A stretch of 64,000 nucleotides of DNA, taken from contig JBHJGN010000019.1 in NCBI GenBank assembly GCA_050331735.1, positions 90,603-154,602 on the forward strand, in the 5' to 3' direction. Positions 34,461-41,105 of this stretch are shown here, in pieces. The notes under the pieces are model-generated. The model searched no databases, was not told the DNA's origin, and saw only the letters and a program-made list of their open reading frames with translations. A program made the position numbers and the translations under genes. How positions within the stretch are numbered: the first letter of the stretch is position 1; every line of letters starts with the position of its first letter. Source of the DNA: Cyanophyceae cyanobacterium. GTDB lineage: Bacteria; Cyanobacteriota; Cyanobacteriia; Cyanobacteriales; JBHJGN01.

Positions 34461-36491
34461 ATGAGTCGAATCGAACAATTTCGCAATGTCGCTCTGGTTG
34501 GACCTTATGCGAGCGGCAAAACGACGTTACTAGAGAGCATCTTGTTTGTCACGCAGGCAACGACACGTAAAGGAAGAGTCAAAGACGGCAATACGGTGGG
34601 CGATAGTTCTCCAGAAGCCAGAGCCCGTCAGATGAGCGTAGAAGTTTCGGTTGCCAGCACAGAGTATCAAGGCATTCACTTTACCTTTCTTGACTGTCCT
34701 GGCTCGATTGAGTTTACCCAAGAAACTGCTCACGCGCTCGTCGGGGTCGGAGCCGCCATCGTCGTCTGCGAACCTCTTGTGGAGAAGGTGCTAACGCTGG
34801 CTCCTCTGTTTAAGTTCCTCGATGACTGGCAAATCCCACATCTAGTTTTTATTAACAAAATGGAGCGGGGACAAAGCCACTACACGGAAATACTCCACGC
34901 CCTCAAATCGGTATCGAGCCGTCCCTTAGTTCCCCATCAGTATCCGATTCGCCAGGGACAGAACCTTGTTGGCTACATCGATCTGATCGGCGAACAGGCT
35001 TATCATTACCACCCCGGAAGTCTTGCCGATCCGGTTCCGTTACCAGAAGACCTGCAAGAACAGGAAAAGGCAGCTCGCAACGAAATGCTGGAAACCCTCG
35101 CCGACTTTGACGACCATCTTCTCGAAGAACTCATTGAAGAGATTGAACCGACCCAAGAAGAAATTCTCCAGGATGTGAAAAAAGACCTCAGTGCCGATCT
35201 AATTGTTCCGGTATTTTTTGGGGTGGCTGAGCAAGACGCTGGCGTGCGTCCTCTGCTAGATGCTTTAGTCAAGGAAACTCCGCCCCCAACAACGACAGCC
35301 CAGCGACGAGGACTCACGGTAGCAGCGAACGGAGACACAATCCTACAGGTGCTGAAAACCTACTACACCCTTCAAGGCGGACGACTCTCCTTAGCAAGAG
35401 TGTGGCAAGGGCATCTAAAAGATGGCATGCTCCTCGACGGTGTTCGAGCGAGCGGCATTTATCGCCTGATGGGAGGACAGCAGGAGGCTGTTGCAGAAGC
35501 ATCTGTCGGAGCAATTGTCGCGGTTGGTCGTTTAGAAGGCGTTCAAACCGGGGACACGTTAACCAATTCAGATCAAAAGCAGGATTTACCCAAAGCCGAG
35601 CCACTTCAGCCGGTTTATGCGCTGGCGATCGCCCCCGAAAACCGCCAGGATGAAGTTAAGCTCAGCAGTGCTATGAGCAAACTTATTGAAGAAGATCCCT
35701 CTCTGTACTGGGAGCAGCACGGCGATACTCACGAAGTCATTTTGTGGGGACAGGGAGAAATTCACCTCCAGGTGACGCTGGAGCGGTTGCGCTGCAAGTA
35801 TAACTTACCGATGACGACTCACCGTCCGCAGGTTCCTTACCGGGAGACGATCCGCCACTTTACGGAGTGTCACGGACGCTACAAACATCAATCGGGGGGT
35901 CACGGAGCCTTTGGCGATGTTCATCTCGACATTAAACCGATGGCGCGCGGAGAGGGTTTTCGCTTCTACGAAACGATTGTTGGCGGCGTGGTGCCCAAAC
36001 AGTACATTCCGGGAGTAGAAATGGGAGTGCGAGAGTATCTCGAACGCGGTCCTTTAGGGTTTCCGGTTGTCGATGTCGAGGTCACCCTAACCAATGGCTC
36101 GCACCACTCCGTTGACAGCTCCGAGCAAGCCTTCAAACAAGCTGCCCGCATTGCCATGACGGAAGGAATGCCCCAGTGTCAGCCTGTCTTGCTCGAACCC
36201 ATCCTCTCGATTCAAGTATCGGCTCCGGCGGAGTTTACGTCTAAAGTGCTTCAGCTTGTCAGCGGACGACGAGGACAAATTTTAGGGTACGAAGCCCTCC
36301 CTGACTGGCAAGGCTGGGATCAAATATTGGCCTATTTACCGCAAGCGGAAATGCACAGCTTTATCATTGAGCTGCGGTCTTTAACAATGGGAGTTGGTTT
36401 CTTTAAGTGGCAATATGACCATCTCCAGGAAGTTCCTGAAAAGCTGACAGCAAGAATATTAGCAGCTAACAGCAATGGCAACGGAGCGTGA
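34461..36491 (+). CDS. Elongation factor G paralog (EF-G2/FusB type)
   Basis: GPYASGKTT, DCPGS, NKME, GQGEIHL, YKHQSGGHG, HSVDSSE. Confidence 0.92.
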   Translation: MSRIEQFRNVALVGPYASGKTTLLESILFVTQATTRKGRVKDGNTVGDSSPEARARQMSVEVSVASTEYQGIHFTFLDCPGSIEFTQETAHALVGVGAAIVVCEPLVEKVLTLAPLFKFLDDWQIPHLVFINKMERGQSHYTEILHALKSVSSRPLVPHQYPIRQGQNLVGYIDLIGEQAYHYHPGSLADPVPLPEDLQEQEKAARNEMLETLADFDDHLLEELIEEIEPTQEEILQDVKKDLSADLIVPVFFGVAEQDAGVRPLLDALVKETPPPTTTAQRRGLTVAANGDTILQVLKTYYTLQGGRLSLARVWQGHLKDGMLLDGVRASGIYRLMGGQQEAVAEASVGAIVAVGRLEGVQTGDTLTNSDQKQDLPKAEPLQPVYALAIAPENRQDEVKLSSAMSKLIEEDPSLYWEQHGDTHEVILWGQGEIHLQVTLERLRCKYNLPMTTHRPQVPYRETIRHFTECHGRYKHQSGGHGAFGDVHLDIKPMARGEGFRFYETIVGGVVPKQYIPGVEMGVREYLERGPLGFPVVDVEVTLTNGSHHSVDSSEQAFKQAARIAMTEGMPQCQPVLLEPILSIQVSAPAEFTSKVLQLVSGRRGQILGYEALPDWQGWDQILAYLPQAEMHSFIIELRSLTMGVGFFKWQYDHLQEVPEKLTARILAANSNGNGA

Positions 36492-36760: not shown

Positions 36761-37108
36761 ATGGCAAAGAATCAGTCTCGGGAACAAGAGTGGCAAAGGG
36801 CTGAAGAAACCCGGAGAAGGGCTGAGAGCGAACGAGAAACTCAGGCACGACAGAGACAGTCTGCTGAAGAGGAACGGCAGGTTAGGGAAGAGCAACGGCA
36901 AACTCACGAGAACTGGCGGCAGGAAAGCGAAACAGCAAGGCAAGAAGCCGAAGCCGCGCGAGCAGAAGCTGAAATTGCACGTCAAGAAGCCGAAACTGCA
37001 CGCCAAGAAGCAATAGCAGTACGGCGAATTCAAGAGGAGCAAGAGCAAATTATTGAAGAAATGCAGCAAACTCTCAAAGCCTATGAGACCCAGAAACAAA
37101 AAGATTAG
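36761..37108 (+). CDS. Charged coiled-coil protein (E/R/Q/A-rich)
   Basis: Heptad ARQEAET-type repeats; GGAG RBS. Confidence 0.65.
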   Translation: MAKNQSREQEWQRAEETRRRAESERETQARQRQSAEEERQVREEQRQTHENWRQESETARQEAEAARAEAEIARQEAETARQEAIAVRRIQEEQEQIIEEMQQTLKAYETQKQKD

Positions 37109-37193
37109 AATCAGCGACGCGGCATTCTTGTTGCACTAGAACGATGTTCGCGTTGCCAACACCGTATCTTCGCTCTCGTAGTTTAATAATAAA

Positions 37194-37799
37194 TTAACCT
37201 GATGCAGGAGGTTTAGTAATAATCTGGTCAATTAAACTGTAGGCTTTTGCTTCTTTGGCATTGAGAAAAAACTCTCTTTGCGTGTCGTGTTCGATTAACT
37301 CGACAGAACGACCCGTATTGGCAGCGAATATTCGATTAACTGTTTCTCTTTGAGACAAAATTTCTTGGACGGCTATTTCAAGATCGGTTGCTCTTCCTTG
37401 AGCATTTCCCGCTGGTTGCTGCATCCTGATACGAGCATTCGGCAAAGCATATCTTTTACCCTTGGTTCCCGACGACAGCAACAGTGCTCCTCCTAAAGCC
37501 GCCGCGCCCACACAAACCGTACAAACCTCTGCATGAAGCTGTTGCAGGGTATCGTGAATAGCGATCGCCGCCGCTACTGAACCGCCAGAGCTATTAATGT
37601 ACAAGAAAATATCCCGTTCTGACTCTGCATTGAGAAACAGCAGTTGGGCAATGATTTGATTCGCCGTTGCTTCTGTCAGTTCGCCTCGCAAAAAGACTAT
37701 TCTCTGCTCGAGGAGACGGGAATAAATATCAAAGGCTTGCTCTGTTTTGTTAATTAGTGGAAGATTGATGGGGATATCCGGTTCAAAAGGAGAGTTCAT
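37194..37799 (-). CDS. ClpP-family protein, predicted non-catalytic
   Basis: DIYSRLL..RIVFL, AQLLFL, LYINSSGG; triad positions read L/Q/E instead of S/H/D. Confidence 0.88.
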   Translation of the reverse strand: MNSPFEPDIPINLPLINKTEQAFDIYSRLLEQRIVFLRGELTEATANQIIAQLLFLNAESERDIFLYINSSGGSVAAAIAIHDTLQQLHAEVCTVCVGAAALGGALLLSSGTKGKRYALPNARIRMQQPAGNAQGRATDLEIAVQEILSQRETVNRIFAANTGRSVELIEHDTQREFFLNAKEAKAYSLIDQIITKPPASG

Positions 37800-37863
37800 T
37801 ATGTTTATCTCCGTGCAAATCTAAGTTGGTAACGTTTCAAGTATTTGCTGATCTTCTGGGTGT

Positions 37864-38709
37864 TCAACTGTGCTGTTGACGAGCAAGAGAGTGCTTCACC
37901 TGAGTTACATCTACTTCAGGCATATGTAACTCAACTAATGCTACTGTTTCAGCTATTAATTCTTTAAGCTGGTGAACAGTAGATAAAGGTTCTTGATGAT
38001 AGAGACTTTCAAGCCGTTCATAGAGATTTTGGGGAGCAATATTCATCTGGTCGATGAACTGTTTCATCCGTTTAAACTGAAACGTCGTATAGTACATGCG
38101 ATTTAGTCCCGCTAGAATGCCCAAGATATTTTGTCCGGCTTCTAGGCGTACTTGATGCTGAAAGAGTGTAGTATCTCTGGCAGCGAAGTTTTCCTGTAAA
38201 GCCCACAACGGGAAAAAACTCAAATAATTTTCCACCATTGCCTGTGCCAAAGCGTCTGGATAGTCAGCAATCTGCCTCTTCCATTGGGAAATCAGCGCCT
38301 CGCCGTACAAAGGAATACAGTTAAGCATTCCCGAAAGCGCTTTTTGTAGGGGAGACACGTCCAGTTCTTGAAGGACTGTTCTTATGTCTTGTTCCCAAAA
38401 CGCAATGGTCATGTTGCCGATTTGGAACTCTACACCATCGACAAAATAAAATTCGCCAAAAAAACCATCGCTGCGATCGCCTAAAGTCAATGTTGGTTCA
38501 GAACCAAGATTTTGCTGGCGGGCCAATTGGAGCTTTTCGATAGCAGGCAGTTCATCGTAGTAAATAAACATCTCTACATCCGAATAGCAATCCGCTTGCC
38601 CTTGAGCAACAGAACCCGTCACCATTGCGGCTTTGGCTTCGGGATTAGCAATGTAGGCTTTGACGCTTCGTTGTGCCAAATTAAAAAGGTATTGACTCGC
38701 TTCGTTCAT
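37864..38709 (-). CDS. Pol-beta-like nucleotidyltransferase domain protein (DUF4037-like)
   Basis: TGSVAQGQADCYSDVE motif, helical C-terminal domain; ATGA overlap with upstream gene. Confidence 0.7.
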   Translation of the reverse strand: MNEASQYLFNLAQRSVKAYIANPEAKAAMVTGSVAQGQADCYSDVEMFIYYDELPAIEKLQLARQQNLGSEPTLTLGDRSDGFFGEFYFVDGVEFQIGNMTIAFWEQDIRTVLQELDVSPLQKALSGMLNCIPLYGEALISQWKRQIADYPDALAQAMVENYLSFFPLWALQENFAARDTTLFQHQVRLEAGQNILGILAGLNRMYYTTFQFKRMKQFIDQMNIAPQNLYERLESLYHQEPLSTVHQLKELIAETVALVELHMPEVDVTQVKHSLARQQHS

Positions 38710-39239
38710 GATTTTTTTGGCAGTGTTTCCATTAAGTTGGCAAGGCGATACTCCCACTCCTCTTTTGTGGCTAAATCAATAACACAGTCGTTCGCTGCTT
38801 TTAGTCTGAGCGTATTAATCGAGGGGAGATTAAATGTCAGTGCAGAAGGACTCCAATTAGACTCGTACAGGAACGGATTGCGAATAGCCTCTGGTTCTAG
38901 CTGCTGTCCCTGTAGCGCGACGGCGAAGCCATACTTCTGATGCGTTAACTGTAGCTGCGTTCCGTCCTCTACTGGTGTTAGCGTCCAGATCACCAGCGTC
39001 GTCTCACCCGTCATATCTTGCCAAGTGTAGGCAAGACGTTTGGGAGCAACGAGTTCTACAACCTCGCATTCAATCGCCTCTAGTCCCGGTAAAGAAGGTT
39101 CAAACCTGAATTTATGCCCCAGTTTCGGTTCAAAATCATTCTTCATCATCCAGGTATTTAAAGCGCGGCGATCCACTAACGCACTCCACACCCGCTGCGG
39201 TGGATGAGGATAAAAAACGCTTAGCTTGACTTCTCTCAT
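38706..39239 (-). CDS. SRPBCC/AHSA1 domain protein
   Basis: YPHPPQRVWSAL..WMM..FEPKLGHKFRF..CEVVELVAPKRLAYTW..GTQLQLTH. Confidence 0.9.
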   Translation of the reverse strand: MREVKLSVFYPHPPQRVWSALVDRRALNTWMMKNDFEPKLGHKFRFEPSLPGLEAIECEVVELVAPKRLAYTWQDMTGETTLVIWTLTPVEDGTQLQLTHQKYGFAVALQGQQLEPEAIRNPFLYESNWSPSALTFNLPSINTLRLKAANDCVIDLATKEEWEYRLANLMETLPKKS

Positions 39240-39559
39240 GCATTGTCCTCCAAATAGTCCTCTAGGGCAGCGAGTTTTTCTTGCCAGAACTGCTCGTAGT
39301 GACCCACCCAATCAGACACCTGCTGCAACGGTTCTGAATTGAGCCGATAAAAACGCTGCCGTCCGACTCGCCGCTGCTGGACTAATCCTGCCTCACACAA
39401 CACGCTGAGATGCTGCGATACGGCAGGTAAAGACATTGCAAACGGCACTGCTAGTTGTTTAACAGGCTGTTCTCCCTGACGAAGCTGATCTAAAATGGCT
39501 CGTCGCGTGGGGTCGGCGATCGCCTGAAACACATCGGCGCTGGCAGAAATTCGGCTCAT
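39236..39559 (-). CDS. ArsR/SmtB family transcription regulator
   Basis: FQAIADPTRRAIL, MSLPAVSQHLSVL..AGLV..RVGRQRFY. Confidence 0.93.
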   Translation of the reverse strand: MSRISASADVFQAIADPTRRAILDQLRQGEQPVKQLAVPFAMSLPAVSQHLSVLCEAGLVQQRRVGRQRFYRLNSEPLQQVSDWVGHYEQFWQEKLAALEDYLEDNA

Positions 39560-39569
39560 ACACAAACAA

Positions 39570-39623
39570 TTAAGATTTTCCTTAACTATACTAATAATAG
39601 GTAAGTAATTACTTAAGTGTCAA
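39570..39623 (-). promoter_or_regulatory. Sigma70-type promoter with two TAAG-N6-CTTA operators (putative ArsR autoregulation)
   Basis: Minus-strand TTGACA-N18-TATTAT; perfect palindrome taagtaattactta (39602-39615) in the spacer; second box at 39571-39584. Confidence 0.7.
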
Positions 39624-39671
39624 GGGTAACGGGCAGCGTTCAGGTTGGCTAAAAATTCAATCTGAGTTTTG

Positions 39672-39715
39672 TGTAGCATTTAATACACTTCTCTTTTGGG
39701 AAAAACCTGTACTCT
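39672..39715 (+). promoter_or_regulatory. NtcA-activated promoter
   Basis: tGTAgcatttaaTACa (GTA-N8-TAC at 39673-39686), then TActcT -10 box 23 nt downstream. Confidence 0.8.
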
Positions 39716-39737
39716 GCTACTGTGAATAATTATTTCG

Positions 39738-39845
39738 AGCGCTTCTAGGGTTCCGATTTAAAGCTCCTTTAAATGTCTGGTCCGAGAGAAGCAGGCTATC
39801 TCTTCAAGGAAGATAGCTCCACGGCGGGAAAAAAGCCCGGGAGGA
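39738..39845 (+). ncRNA. Guanidine-I (ykkC-yxkD) riboswitch
   Basis: gcttCTAGGGTTCCG...GGTCCGAGAGaagc, stem gctatct/agatagc, CACGGCGGGA-AAAAGCCCGGGAG; upstream of gdmH. Confidence 0.93.
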
Positions 39846-39885
39846 TTTGATGCTGAAATAGTATCGCTCTTCTTGGGTGTTTTTT
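39835..39885 (+). terminator. Riboswitch expression-platform terminator
   Basis: gcccgggagga can pair (with G-U) with tcttcttgggt, followed by a T6 run. Confidence 0.7.
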
Positions 39886-39911
39886 ATTGATAGGTAAGCG
39901 GAGGAATTTTA

Positions 39912-41105
39912 ATGAGCGGACAACCCCCATTCCAGCCACCCGGTAACAACGGCAATAGCTACGCTAGCGAAGCGCAGCGAGCATTAGAGAGAGAAAGAAA
40001 CCTGCCCATGACCGGGTGGCAACAAGAAGTCGATCAGGGGTTAGAGTACGGTTTAGAAGCCGCTGACAGCATCCGCGATCGCACCATTTCGACGTTTTCG
40101 CGGGGGGAATTACCGCACTACGCGGGTATTAACACCTTTCTCAAAGCTCCCTACATTGAAGATGTTCGCACAGTCGGCAACTACGATGTCGCGATCATCG
40201 GCGTTCCTCATGACTCAGGCACCACCTATCGCCCCGGGACTCGGTTTGGACCGCAAGGTATCCGACAAATTTCAGCGCTGTACACGCCCTATAACTTTGA
40301 ATTTGGCGTAGATTTGCGAGAACAAATTACTCTCTGCGATGTCGGGGATATCTTTACCATTCCCGGCAACAACGAAAAATCCTTCGACCAGATTTCTAAA
40401 GGGATCGCTCACGTTTTTAGTTCTGGCGCTTTTCCGATTATTTTAGGCGGCGACCACTCCATTGGCTTTCCCACCGTTCGCGGCGTTTGTCGCCATCTCG
40501 GGGATAAAAAAGTCGGCATTATTCACTTCGATCGCCATGCGGATACGCAAGAAACTGACTTGGACGAACGGATGCACACCTGTCCCTGGTTTCATGCCAC
40601 CAATATGGAAAATGCCCCGGCGAAAAATTTAGTGCAGATGGGGATTGGCGGCTGGCAAGTGCCGCGTGCGGGGGTTAAAGTTTGCCGAGAACGAGAGACG
40701 GGCATTCTCACCGTCACCGATATTACGGAAATGGGCTTAGACGCGGCGGCGGATTTTGCCATTGAAAGAGCCACAGACGGCACCGACTGCGTTTATATCA
40801 GCTTCGACATCGACTGCATCGATGCAGGCTTTGTCCCCGGTACGGGCTGGCCTGAACCCGGTGGCTTACTGCCCCGCGAGGTTTTGTATCTGCTCAAAAA
40901 GATCGTGCAAAATACCCCTGTTTGCGGCTTAGAAGTGGTTGAGGTTTCTCCCCCCTACGACGTTAGCTCCATGACCGCGCTGATGGCCACTCGCGTGATT
41001 TGCGATACGATGGCGCATCTGGTGCTGTCGGGACAACTGCCGCGATCGCAAACCCCGGCTTACATTCACTCCGAAGCTCAGCAGGTCGATTCTCCGTGGA
41101 ACTAG
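39912..41105 (+). CDS. gdmH: Ni-dependent guanidine hydrolase (ureohydrolase family, Sll1077-type)
   Basis: FSRGELPHYAGINTF, GGDHS, HFDRHAD, MHTCPWF, DIDCID, GTGWPEPGG; riboswitch and hypAB context. Confidence 0.93.
   Translation: MSGQPPFQPPGNNGNSYASEAQRALERERNLPMTGWQQEVDQGLEYGLEAADSIRDRTISTFSRGELPHYAGINTFLKAPYIEDVRTVGNYDVAIIGVPHDSGTTYRPGTRFGPQGIRQISALYTPYNFEFGVDLREQITLCDVGDIFTIPGNNEKSFDQISKGIAHVFSSGAFPIILGGDHSIGFPTVRGVCRHLGDKKVGIIHFDRHADTQETDLDERMHTCPWFHATNMENAPAKNLVQMGIGGWQVPRAGVKVCRERETGILTVTDITEMGLDAAADFAIERATDGTDCVYISFDIDCIDAGFVPGTGWPEPGGLLPREVLYLLKKIVQNTPVCGLEVVEVSPPYDVSSMTALMATRVICDTMAHLVLSGQLPRSQTPAYIHSEAQQVDSPWN

Follow-up and report, generated by a model that had tools for sequence, protein, structure and literature searches.

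A ClpP-like protein with a replaced catalytic triad, encoded behind an arsR-SRPBCC gene pair in cyanobacteria

What does a full-length ClpP gene contribute to an operon when all three catalytic residues of its product have been replaced? The question is raised by a ClpP-like gene in a 64,000-nt stretch of contig JBHJGN010000019.1 from a Cyanophyceae cyanobacterium of a metagenome-assembled lineage (the window, by whose positions all features are numbered). The gene lies behind genes for an ArsR-family repressor, a START-like SRPBCC protein and a nucleotidyltransferase (NTase)-like protein, and a preliminary description of the DNA had taken it for an independently evolved pseudo-protease. As the rest of the protein is under purifying selection, we read it as a stress-induced non-catalytic subunit of the Clp core. 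We give a probability of roughly 0.55 to the reading that it is a selected, non-catalytic ClpP1/P2-like subunit in an ArsR/SRPBCC-controlled stress operon, comparable to ClpR in its working and of independent origin.

Triad loss in the ClpP-like protein and its relatives

The gene under study is the following:

37194-37799, minus strand: clpP-like gene, 201 amino acids, full length

Its product matches Pfam CLP_protease (PF00574, family S14) at 3e-65 and 220 bits over profile positions 2-181 of 182, and solved ClpP chains at 1.2e-60, with about 50% identity to many of them. In a HMMER alignment, Leu102, Gln127 and Glu176 of the protein occupy the columns of Ser98, His123 and Asp172 of S. aureus ClpP, within the motifs GAAALGG, IRMQQP and QREFF. 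This agrees with the changes Ser>Leu, His>Gln and Asp>Glu noted in the preliminary description. With the Ser-His-Asp triad replaced, the protein is a non-peptidase homologue of family S14, and it stays under the cut-off of every NCBIfam ClpP model that it matches (8 of 8). Gly stands in the column of S. aureus Met99, a presumed component of the oxyanion hole. The codons at the three triad positions (TTA, CAG and GAG) were indeed, as had been pointed out, each a single base removed from a codon for Ser, His or Asp, which makes the accompanying caveat a fair one and calls for a test against relatives.

We therefore compared the 120 best database relatives, the window protein counted in. The triad is S-H-D in 43 of these and S-Q-D in 42, followed by A-R-D (10), S-E-D and S-R-D (4 each), L-Q-E and G-A-E (3 each), A-Q-D and G-A-D (2 each) and seven other states found once each; altogether, the His is absent in 76. 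According to the source names, S-Q-D proteins occur in Xenococcaceae, Pleurocapsa, Waterburya and Hyella, and A-R-D and S-R-D proteins in Nostocales. The motif beside the His column is still conserved in the relatives as RI(R/K)IQQP. The window protein shares the L-Q-E state with P0002 (86% identical) and P0003 (84%), its two nearest relatives, both from short contigs; the state is thus not a private decay product of this genome. The losses of Ser and Asp in the window's own lineage rest on these three protein sequences. A single-protein search of genome and metagenome contigs returned no DNA of close relatives and alignment queries returned a best match of 71% identity; the window genome is the sole member of its family among the genomes sampled. 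Among sequencing runs, the stretch turned up only in a DNA run of a stromatolite metagenome, which may be where the assembly comes from, and no RNA run containing it was listed.

The order of the losses can be read from a maximum-likelihood (ML) tree calculated with IQ-TREE from 77 rows and 203 columns (support given as ultrafast bootstrap/SH-aLRT). The rows are 50 database proteins including the window's, 15 proteins from related loci, five paralogues of this genome and seven canonical ClpPs of other genomes in the order; the remaining proteins of the 120 were left out for size. The window protein falls in a 61-row clade (100/99) whose basal grade consists of S-H-D sequences from Nostoc, Brasilonema, Scytonema and Fischerella. 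Nested within the 61 rows, all sequences without His unite in a single clade (94/87), and support is 100/98 for the x-Q-x clade of 23 rows and 100/99 for the L-Q-E trio. The minimum number of changes on this tree is one for His and six each for Ser and Asp, the pattern expected if the general base was lost once, inactivating the enzyme and freeing the other two residues to drift. On this history, the ancestor would have lost its general base first, through His>Gln, and Ser>Leu and Asp>Glu would have come later. The claim of an independent pseudo-protease has to be narrowed in this respect, as the loss of His is old and extends over a large clade, leaving Ser>Leu and Asp>Glu as the only changes peculiar to the small subclade of the window.

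An altered site might nevertheless keep some hydrolase activity, as might the Ser of the S-Q-D proteins with another residue as base. That 42 relatives retain Ser and Asp around the Gln, together with the intact RI(R/K)IQQP motif, would suit such an activity. It is opposed by the Leu at the position of the nucleophile, by the Gly at the presumed oxyanion-hole position and by the loss of Ser at least six times in the clade, as expected once catalysis has gone. We consider residual catalysis very improbable.

We then estimated selection by the Nei-Gojobori method on the genes for which DNA is available, with the following dN/dS ratios:

window gene vs five S-Q-D genes: 0.11-0.14 (approximate, since dS is saturated at 1.3-1.65)
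window gene vs the M-Q-S gene: 0.26
within S-Q-D: 0.13-0.43
within A-Q-N/T: 0.14-0.24
within A-R-D: 0.08-0.24
among triad-intact S-H-D: 0.09-0.32

The triad-less genes are under about the same constraint as the intact ones (0.08-0.43 vs 0.09-0.32), and the ratios are those of purifying selection, not of a value near 1. In the L-Q-E trio, substitutions affect 8 of the 83 columns that the sister clade conserves and 40 of the 117 variable ones (Fisher p 4.6e-5). This avoidance of conserved columns argues against neutral decay of the L-Q-E lineage.

Decay is the explanation that these figures bear on most directly: the open frame could be the remnant of a gene whose triad was recently hit by point mutations. 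The single-base distance of every triad change from an active codon fits this, as do the patchy distribution of the paralogue and the in-frame stops in three of 27 copies elsewhere. Conversely, L-Q-E recurs in two relatives at 84-86% identity, the substitutions of the trio avoid conserved columns, dN/dS is low in the triad-less groups and in comparisons with the nearest genes for which DNA is available, the frame is full length with a ribosome-binding site (RBS), and the loss of His extends over most of the best relatives. A decaying gene is therefore a quite improbable account.

Relation to ClpP1, ClpP2, ClpP3 and ClpR

If the protein is a non-catalytic Clp subunit, is it simply a ClpR? The assembly (5.57 Mb, 99 contigs, 99.98% complete) gave nine matches in a Pfam family search, of which seven represent six ClpP-family genes and the other two are weak and lie in longer frames. 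The six genes are a ClpP2-type gene in a tig-clpP-clpX arrangement (S-H-D), a monocistronic ClpP1-type gene (S-H-D), two clpR-like genes, clpP3 and the window gene. The window protein is 55% identical to ClpP2, 53% to ClpP1, 49% to ClpP3 and 36-44% to the two ClpR-like proteins, and its N-terminus is of the ClpP1/P2 type, not of the ClpP3/R type. Both ClpR-like genes encode 9-14 extra residues after INS.G, an insertion that we take to define ClpR. The window protein lacks it, as do ClpP1, ClpP2 and ClpP3, which bears out the earlier remark that the ClpR insertion after YINS is missing. The clpR-like genes and clpP3 are clustered on another contig (C63, as clpRa-clpRb-clpP3), and the window gene has no clpP3 neighbour. 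The protein departs from ClpR in these three respects (insertion, operon, N-terminus), and membership in ClpR was set aside.

The cluster on C63 (locus L003:37-2055) has two tandem ClpR-like genes before clpP3. Their products, of 227 and 218 amino acids, are 48% identical to each other and carry G-N-T and G-T-T, respectively, at the triad columns.

In the tree, the 61-row clade stands apart from the five paralogues of this genome (ClpP1, ClpP2, ClpP3 and the two ClpR-like proteins) and from four non-cyanobacterial ClpPs, and an earlier ML tree likewise put the ClpP-like protein in a separate clade (98 SH-aLRT). ClpP1 is no more than a candidate sister of the clade (42/79). Together with the identity of 53-55% to ClpP1 and ClpP2, the separate clade favours the independent standing claimed for the protein, and a fourth cyanobacterial ClpP lineage is strongly supported in the tree. 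The name 'ClpP4' in cyanobacterial papers is, we assume, a gene name used for ClpR. Full-text literature searches, which did not cover subscription journals, found neither an earlier description of the triad-less lineage nor a paper linking an ArsR-SRPBCC pair to ClpP. In the accessible part of a review of Clp proteases, cyanobacteria are given one ClpR and no further inactive subunit is listed (PMC7966870).

Several features bear on how the protein might take part in Clp complexes. Over 31 clade members the mean column identity is 78%, and the regions that determine the fold are strongly conserved. S. aureus residues L24, L49, F50, Y61, Y63, I91, I93, F113, L115 and M190, presumably lining the pocket into which the IGF/LGF loops of an AAA+ partner dock, correspond to L, L, F, F, Y, V, V, Y, L and I, so that the pocket looks conserved, with identical or conservative residues throughout. 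The N-terminal loop reads NLPLINKTEQ, compared with VIETSGRGER in ClpP1/P2. The position of S. aureus Asp170, which we take to be half of an inter-ring 'oligomerisation sensor', is Gln throughout the x-Q-x clade, and ring-ring contacts may be altered as a result.

The same features invite the thought that the protein forms self-standing non-proteolytic heptamers or tetradecamers, which would bind ClpX or ClpC and serve as a cap, a sink or a chaperone-like platform. Its strongly conserved fold, the Gln at the Asp170 position and a genome devoid of a triad-bearing clade-mate would be in keeping with rings of its own. The present data fit mixed rings equally, however, and ClpR, the known inactive relative, works in mixed cores according to the part of the review available (PMC7966870). 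We regard self-standing rings as unlikely.

The arsR-SRPBCC operon, its control region and its cargo

How might the gene be expressed? The clpP-like gene is preceded on the same strand by three genes and a short spacer:

39236-39559, minus strand: arsR, ArsR/SmtB-family winged-helix repressor, 107 amino acids
38706-39239, minus strand: SRPBCC/AHSA1 (START-like) gene, 177 amino acids
37864-38709, minus strand: nucleotidyltransferase-like gene, 281 amino acids
37800-37863, minus strand: spacer of 64 nt between the NTase-like and clpP-like genes, with a GGAG RBS 9 nt 5' of the clpP-like ATG

The start of arsR is the ATG that yields MSR...; 13 of 17 orthologues begin with MSR and two with LSR. The ATGA at 39239-39236 combines the arsR stop with the SRPBCC start, and the ATGA at 38709-38706 the SRPBCC stop with the NTase-like start, so that the overlaps and the separate RBS of the clpP-like gene are as first described. 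A site scan of the minus strand found neither a terminator-like nor a promoter-like site in the spacer, whose RNA folds weakly (-6.2 kcal/mol, z +1.0), and no minus-strand terminator-like site within 36900-39950; the RNA 3' of the clpP-like gene folds no better than shuffled sequences (z -0.45). Given a spacer without such sites or a fold, co-transcription of the four genes is plausible.

Upstream of arsR, the control region contains three elements:

39594-39623, minus strand: sigma-70-type promoter, TTGACA (39623-39618), 18-nt spacer, TATTAT (39599-39594)
39602-39616, minus strand: O1, operator-like inverted repeat TTAAG-N6-CTTA, inside the -35/-10 spacer
39570-39585, minus strand: O2, operator-like inverted repeat TTAAG-N6-CTTAA, immediately 3' of the -10 box

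The promoter agrees with the consensus at 11 of 12 positions and is the best site of the region, as a consensus match rather than a mapped start. The TTGACA...TATTAT/TATTCT layout is also found 5' of arsR in other cyanobacterial loci, and the full order of TTGACA, O1 in the spacer, -10 box and O2 is kept in 15 of 16 further loci compared, the exception being L053. In the 5.57-Mb genome, the O1...O2 pair and the -35+O1 pattern each occur once, at this promoter, and a reversed-pattern control occurs nowhere. No further double operator was found in the genome, in a search that did not extend to single sites (10 specified bases). We take the region to look like an autoregulated promoter with two candidate operators overlapping the RNA polymerase site, and the double inverted repeat to be the candidate operator of this ArsR subfamily, to which ArsR would bind. 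The double repeat around the -10 box was seen in L011-L014, L040, L042-L050 and L052, which belong to Nostocales, Pleurocapsales-type and other cyanobacteria.

The repressor itself matches HTH_5 at 1.2e-12 (48 bits, cut-off 22) and NF033788 at 92.7 bits (cut-off 55), its nearest solved chain is 3f6o (1.5e-18, aligned over residues 9-105), and its orthologues are 73-81% identical. It has a single Cys, replaced by Ser or Thr in two of 17 other sequences, and no Cys pair was seen. For comparison we assumed an alpha3 Cys pair or an alpha5 His/Asp/Glu site as the metal- or thiol-sensing motif. In the absence of conserved residues of either kind, and with all specific metal-sensor equivalog models below cut-off, a metal-sensing ArsR was set aside. 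The C-terminal helix (about residues 84-105) is the conserved part, with W84, Y88, E89, F91, W92, L96, L99, Y102, L103 and E104 invariant in 14 sequences.

The SRPBCC protein matches AHSA1 (PF08327) at 5.7e-16 and 59.3 bits (cut-off 22.1) over approximately its first 100 residues. The remainder is variable save for a conserved C-terminal W-x-Y-x-L stretch. Its nearest solved chains are Mll2253 (3q63, 7.1e-16), BH1534, BC4709, YndB and, weakly, CalU16 (E 0.003). A complex prediction for an ArsR dimer with SRPBCC scored 0.78, compared with 0.01 for the best of three controls. Of 157 solved complexes, 116 attained that level, as did 2 of 215 mismatched pairs; these counts are only a rough guide here, as the prediction used 14-row alignments of our own. 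Between runs, 52% or more of the contacts coincide, the pLDDT of the partner is at least 62, and the confident contacts join ArsR 88-107 to SRPBCC 1-31, 81 and 96-100 (the N-terminal sheet region). The model supports, and does not show, that SRPBCC binds the C-terminal helix of ArsR. We know of no solved ArsR-SRPBCC complex; if one exists, the prediction may reflect memory.

The third protein is harder to place. It scores 20.4 bits with Polbeta (cut-off 26.9) and 19.5 bits with the MntA model (cut-off 60), below cut-off in both cases, and no solved relative was found by sequence. Its nearest ESM Atlas clusters are DUF4037/NTP_transf_2 (0.97-0.98, from language-model features without alignment), and the assignment as a Pol-beta-type, DUF4037-like NTase is weak. 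As the matches to MntA and to the Rv0910-toxin model are weak and far below cut-off, a toxin-antitoxin reading was set aside.

To see how constant this gene order is, we turned to the 18 cyanobacterial loci found with the ClpP query (L011-L014 and L040-L053). An arsR 75-81% identical to the window's, directly adjoined by SRPBCC, lies upstream of the clpP paralogue in 16 of them. It is absent in L041 and L051, as well as within the available flank of the metagenome loci L120-L122 (for L120, less than 500 nt upstream). A complete NTase gene occurs in L048 only (58% identical), with fragments in L043, and the four-gene order consequently lacks conservation. What is conserved is arsR-SRPBCC as a core, frequently with clpP as cargo. 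Of the expectations held at the outset, the coupling of arsR and SRPBCC is plausible and conserved, and the triad loss recurs in the nearest relatives; the NTase gene has a full counterpart in one further locus. At the level of genomes, hits above 58% identity to the ClpP protein come from four of the 150 other sampled genomes of the order, all of one family.

The interval between SRPBCC and clpP holds a ChrR-type cupin gene in many loci, and alpha/beta-hydrolase and NAD-dependent epimerase-like genes also occur there. In L041, L121 and L122, metallo-beta-lactamase-fold and glutathione S-transferase genes precede the clpP paralogue; an epimerase-like gene follows it in L041 and L121, and L121 also has an S9-type hydrolase gene. 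The accessory genes of the related operons look like detoxification enzymes by sequence, and this cargo would point to electrophile, oxidant or xenobiotic stress.

In Xenococcaceae and related genomes, L041, L121, L122 and L150 share a recurring block of metallo-beta-lactamase-fold, glutathione S-transferase, clpP paralogue, S9/alpha-beta hydrolase and NAD-dependent epimerase-like genes, not each of which is present in every locus. The block suggests a detoxification module with the ClpP paralogue built in. In the Brasilonema locus L053, an S-H-D copy of clpP is followed by an A-R-D copy broken by a stop.

Such cargo raises the possibility of a different role, in which the operon is a xenobiotic-defence island and the ClpP-like protein a decoy or immunity subunit against ClpP-targeting compounds. 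Dead subunits in mixed rings would lessen uncontrolled proteolysis, and a subunit without Ser would not be acylated. Actinomycete producers of ClpP-targeting compounds carry extra ClpP copies as self-resistance, and the related operons provide glutathione S-transferase, metallo-beta-lactamase-fold, alpha/beta-hydrolase, S9/esterase, epimerase/reductase-like and ChrR-type cupin genes. The weak similarity of SRPBCC to CalU16, which we take to be an enediyne self-resistance protein, and the apparent conservation of the presumed docking-pocket positions would also agree with a decoy. On the other hand, no biosynthetic genes were found near any locus examined, a dead subunit could not replace lost proteolysis, and the basal members of the clade retain the triad; we know of no ClpP-directed compound for this system. 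A decoy strikes us as improbable, though not more so than self-standing rings.

Two further open reading frames (ORFs) lie beyond the clpP-like gene on the plus strand:

36761-37108, plus strand: ORF of 115 amino acids, nearly all Glu/Arg/Gln/Ala in loose repeats (ETARQEAEAARAEAEIARQEAETARQEA), convergent with the clpP-like gene
34461-36491, plus strand: ORF of 676 amino acids, by eye resembling an elongation-factor-G-type GTPase, two genes downstream of the clpP-like gene

Proposed conditional remodelling of the Clp core and comparison with known systems

Taken together, the locus can be pictured as a conserved but patchy cyanobacterial operon whose cargo varies by species and here includes an accessory ClpP of the fourth lineage. 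The ArsR-type regulator would repress its own promoter through the two TTAAG-N6-CTTAA operators. SRPBCC, made in step with ArsR through the ATGA overlap, may dock on the C-terminal helix of the repressor and relay a small-molecule or stress signal. Once induced, the ClpP-like protein would enter or stack onto active ClpP1/ClpP2-type rings, or bind ClpX, and so shift proteolytic capacity or specificity. Both the lack of peptidase activity and the co-assembly with active ClpP are what we infer from the residues and motifs described above.

A number of observations weigh against this reading. The specific arsR occurs in only 10 of the 401 genomes sampled in the phylum (E <= 1e-30; this genome included); SRPBCC follows it in seven of the nine others, and a clpP paralogue is found at most 10 kb away in only five of these nine (three S-H-D, one A-R-D and one A-Q-N). 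The clpP-like gene is dispensable in many lineages. Family searches found no triad-intact clade-mate of the ClpP-like protein in this genome, and an N-terminal loop unlike that of canonical ClpP could equally mean that coupling to AAA+ partners has been lost. The ML tree places the protein apart from ClpR, as the earlier proposal of an origin outside ClpR had anticipated, but an approximately unbiased (AU) test did not reject one clade of the L-Q-E trio and ClpR (delta lnL 25.2, p 0.117), with only two ClpR-like rows in the comparison. The branches of these rows are long (1.44 and 0.66), and our guess is that the constrained tree moved them rather than the trio. For the window gene, dN/dS combines the two lineages and dS is saturated; the substitution test on the trio is indirect. 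Lastly, the three paralogue copies with an in-frame stop, among the 27 with DNA, are L044 and L050 (Nostoc, S-H-D) and the second copy of L053.

In L044:5950-6609 and L050:5950-6606, the stops lie at nearly the same N-terminal spot (…MIIQ*SERGE… and …MII*QSERGE…) and could represent decay, a later start or read-through.

On balance, rings mixed with or stacked on those of ClpP1/P2, together with ClpX, rank first among the explanations, a decoy and a self-standing cap come next, and decay and residual catalysis come last. Going further, the lineage might constitute another class of non-catalytic Clp core subunit that evolved independently of ClpR, from an accessory ClpP1/P2-like paralogue in which the catalytic His was lost once. 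It would be supplied on demand through an ArsR helix that is held or released by a START-fold partner, and would remodel the ClpXP core when an electrophile, oxidant or xenobiotic induces it. This wider proposal is tentative, and we would call it possible rather than probable. If true, a housekeeping protease would be tuned inducibly by a pseudo-subunit. The locus itself shows, besides ClpR, a second triad-less ClpP lineage, kept by selection in several cyanobacterial families. Because triad-intact relatives survive in the same type of operon, the passage from enzyme to pseudo-enzyme is traceable, with His first and then Ser and Asp many times. With its conserved, apparently inducible promoter, the locus would allow conditional remodelling of a Clp protease to be tested. 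The predicted contact between ArsR and SRPBCC may also explain how the very common bacterial arsR-AHSA1 pairs sense their signals.

Known systems provide four points of comparison. Pairs of ArsR/SmtB and AHSA1/SRPBCC proteins (with 3f6o and 3f6v, and 3q63 and YndB 2kew, as solved members) share both domain families and the extended C-terminal helix with the proteins encoded here; we know of no described function for such pairs.

ClpR, which belongs as a fixed component to the ClpP3/R core of cyanobacteria and plastids and is to our knowledge near-universal in cyanobacteria, resembles the ClpP-like protein in having the ClpP fold without the Ser-His-Asp triad and in being conserved under selection. 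The probable role is alike too, that of a non-catalytic subunit of the Clp core, as ClpR is described in the part of the review available (PMC7966870). Unlike the ClpP3/R core, the ClpP-like protein has neither the insertion after INS.G nor the ClpP3/R N-terminus, and it is only 36-44% identical to the ClpR-like pair of this genome. Its gene lies behind arsR-SRPBCC, not in a clpR-clpP3 operon, and its lineage is patchy in distribution. In the ML tree it falls into a separate clade (61 rows), although the AU test did not reject a grouping of the L-Q-E trio with ClpR.

ClpP1 and ClpP2 are the paralogues of highest identity and share with it the N-terminal IP....E.AFDIYSRLL..RI.FL, equal length and the lack of insertions. 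They differ in their intact triads and in their genes, which are arranged as tig-clpP2-clpX or stand alone, whereas the window gene is part of a regulated accessory operon. In Synechococcus elongatus, ClpP1 and ClpP2 are described, in the accessible part of the source, as a mixed core partnered with ClpX (PMC4673316).

The closest counterparts are the triad-intact clade-mates encoded in arsR-SRPBCC-cupin-clpP operons of Nostoc, Brasilonema and Scytonema. They have in common with the window an arsR of 75-81% identity, SRPBCC, the promoter, the double operator and the ClpP clade. However, they keep S-H-D, and clpP in their operons is usually flanked by a ChrR-type cupin gene on the 5' side and an epimerase-like gene on the 3' side; the window has the NTase-like gene instead.

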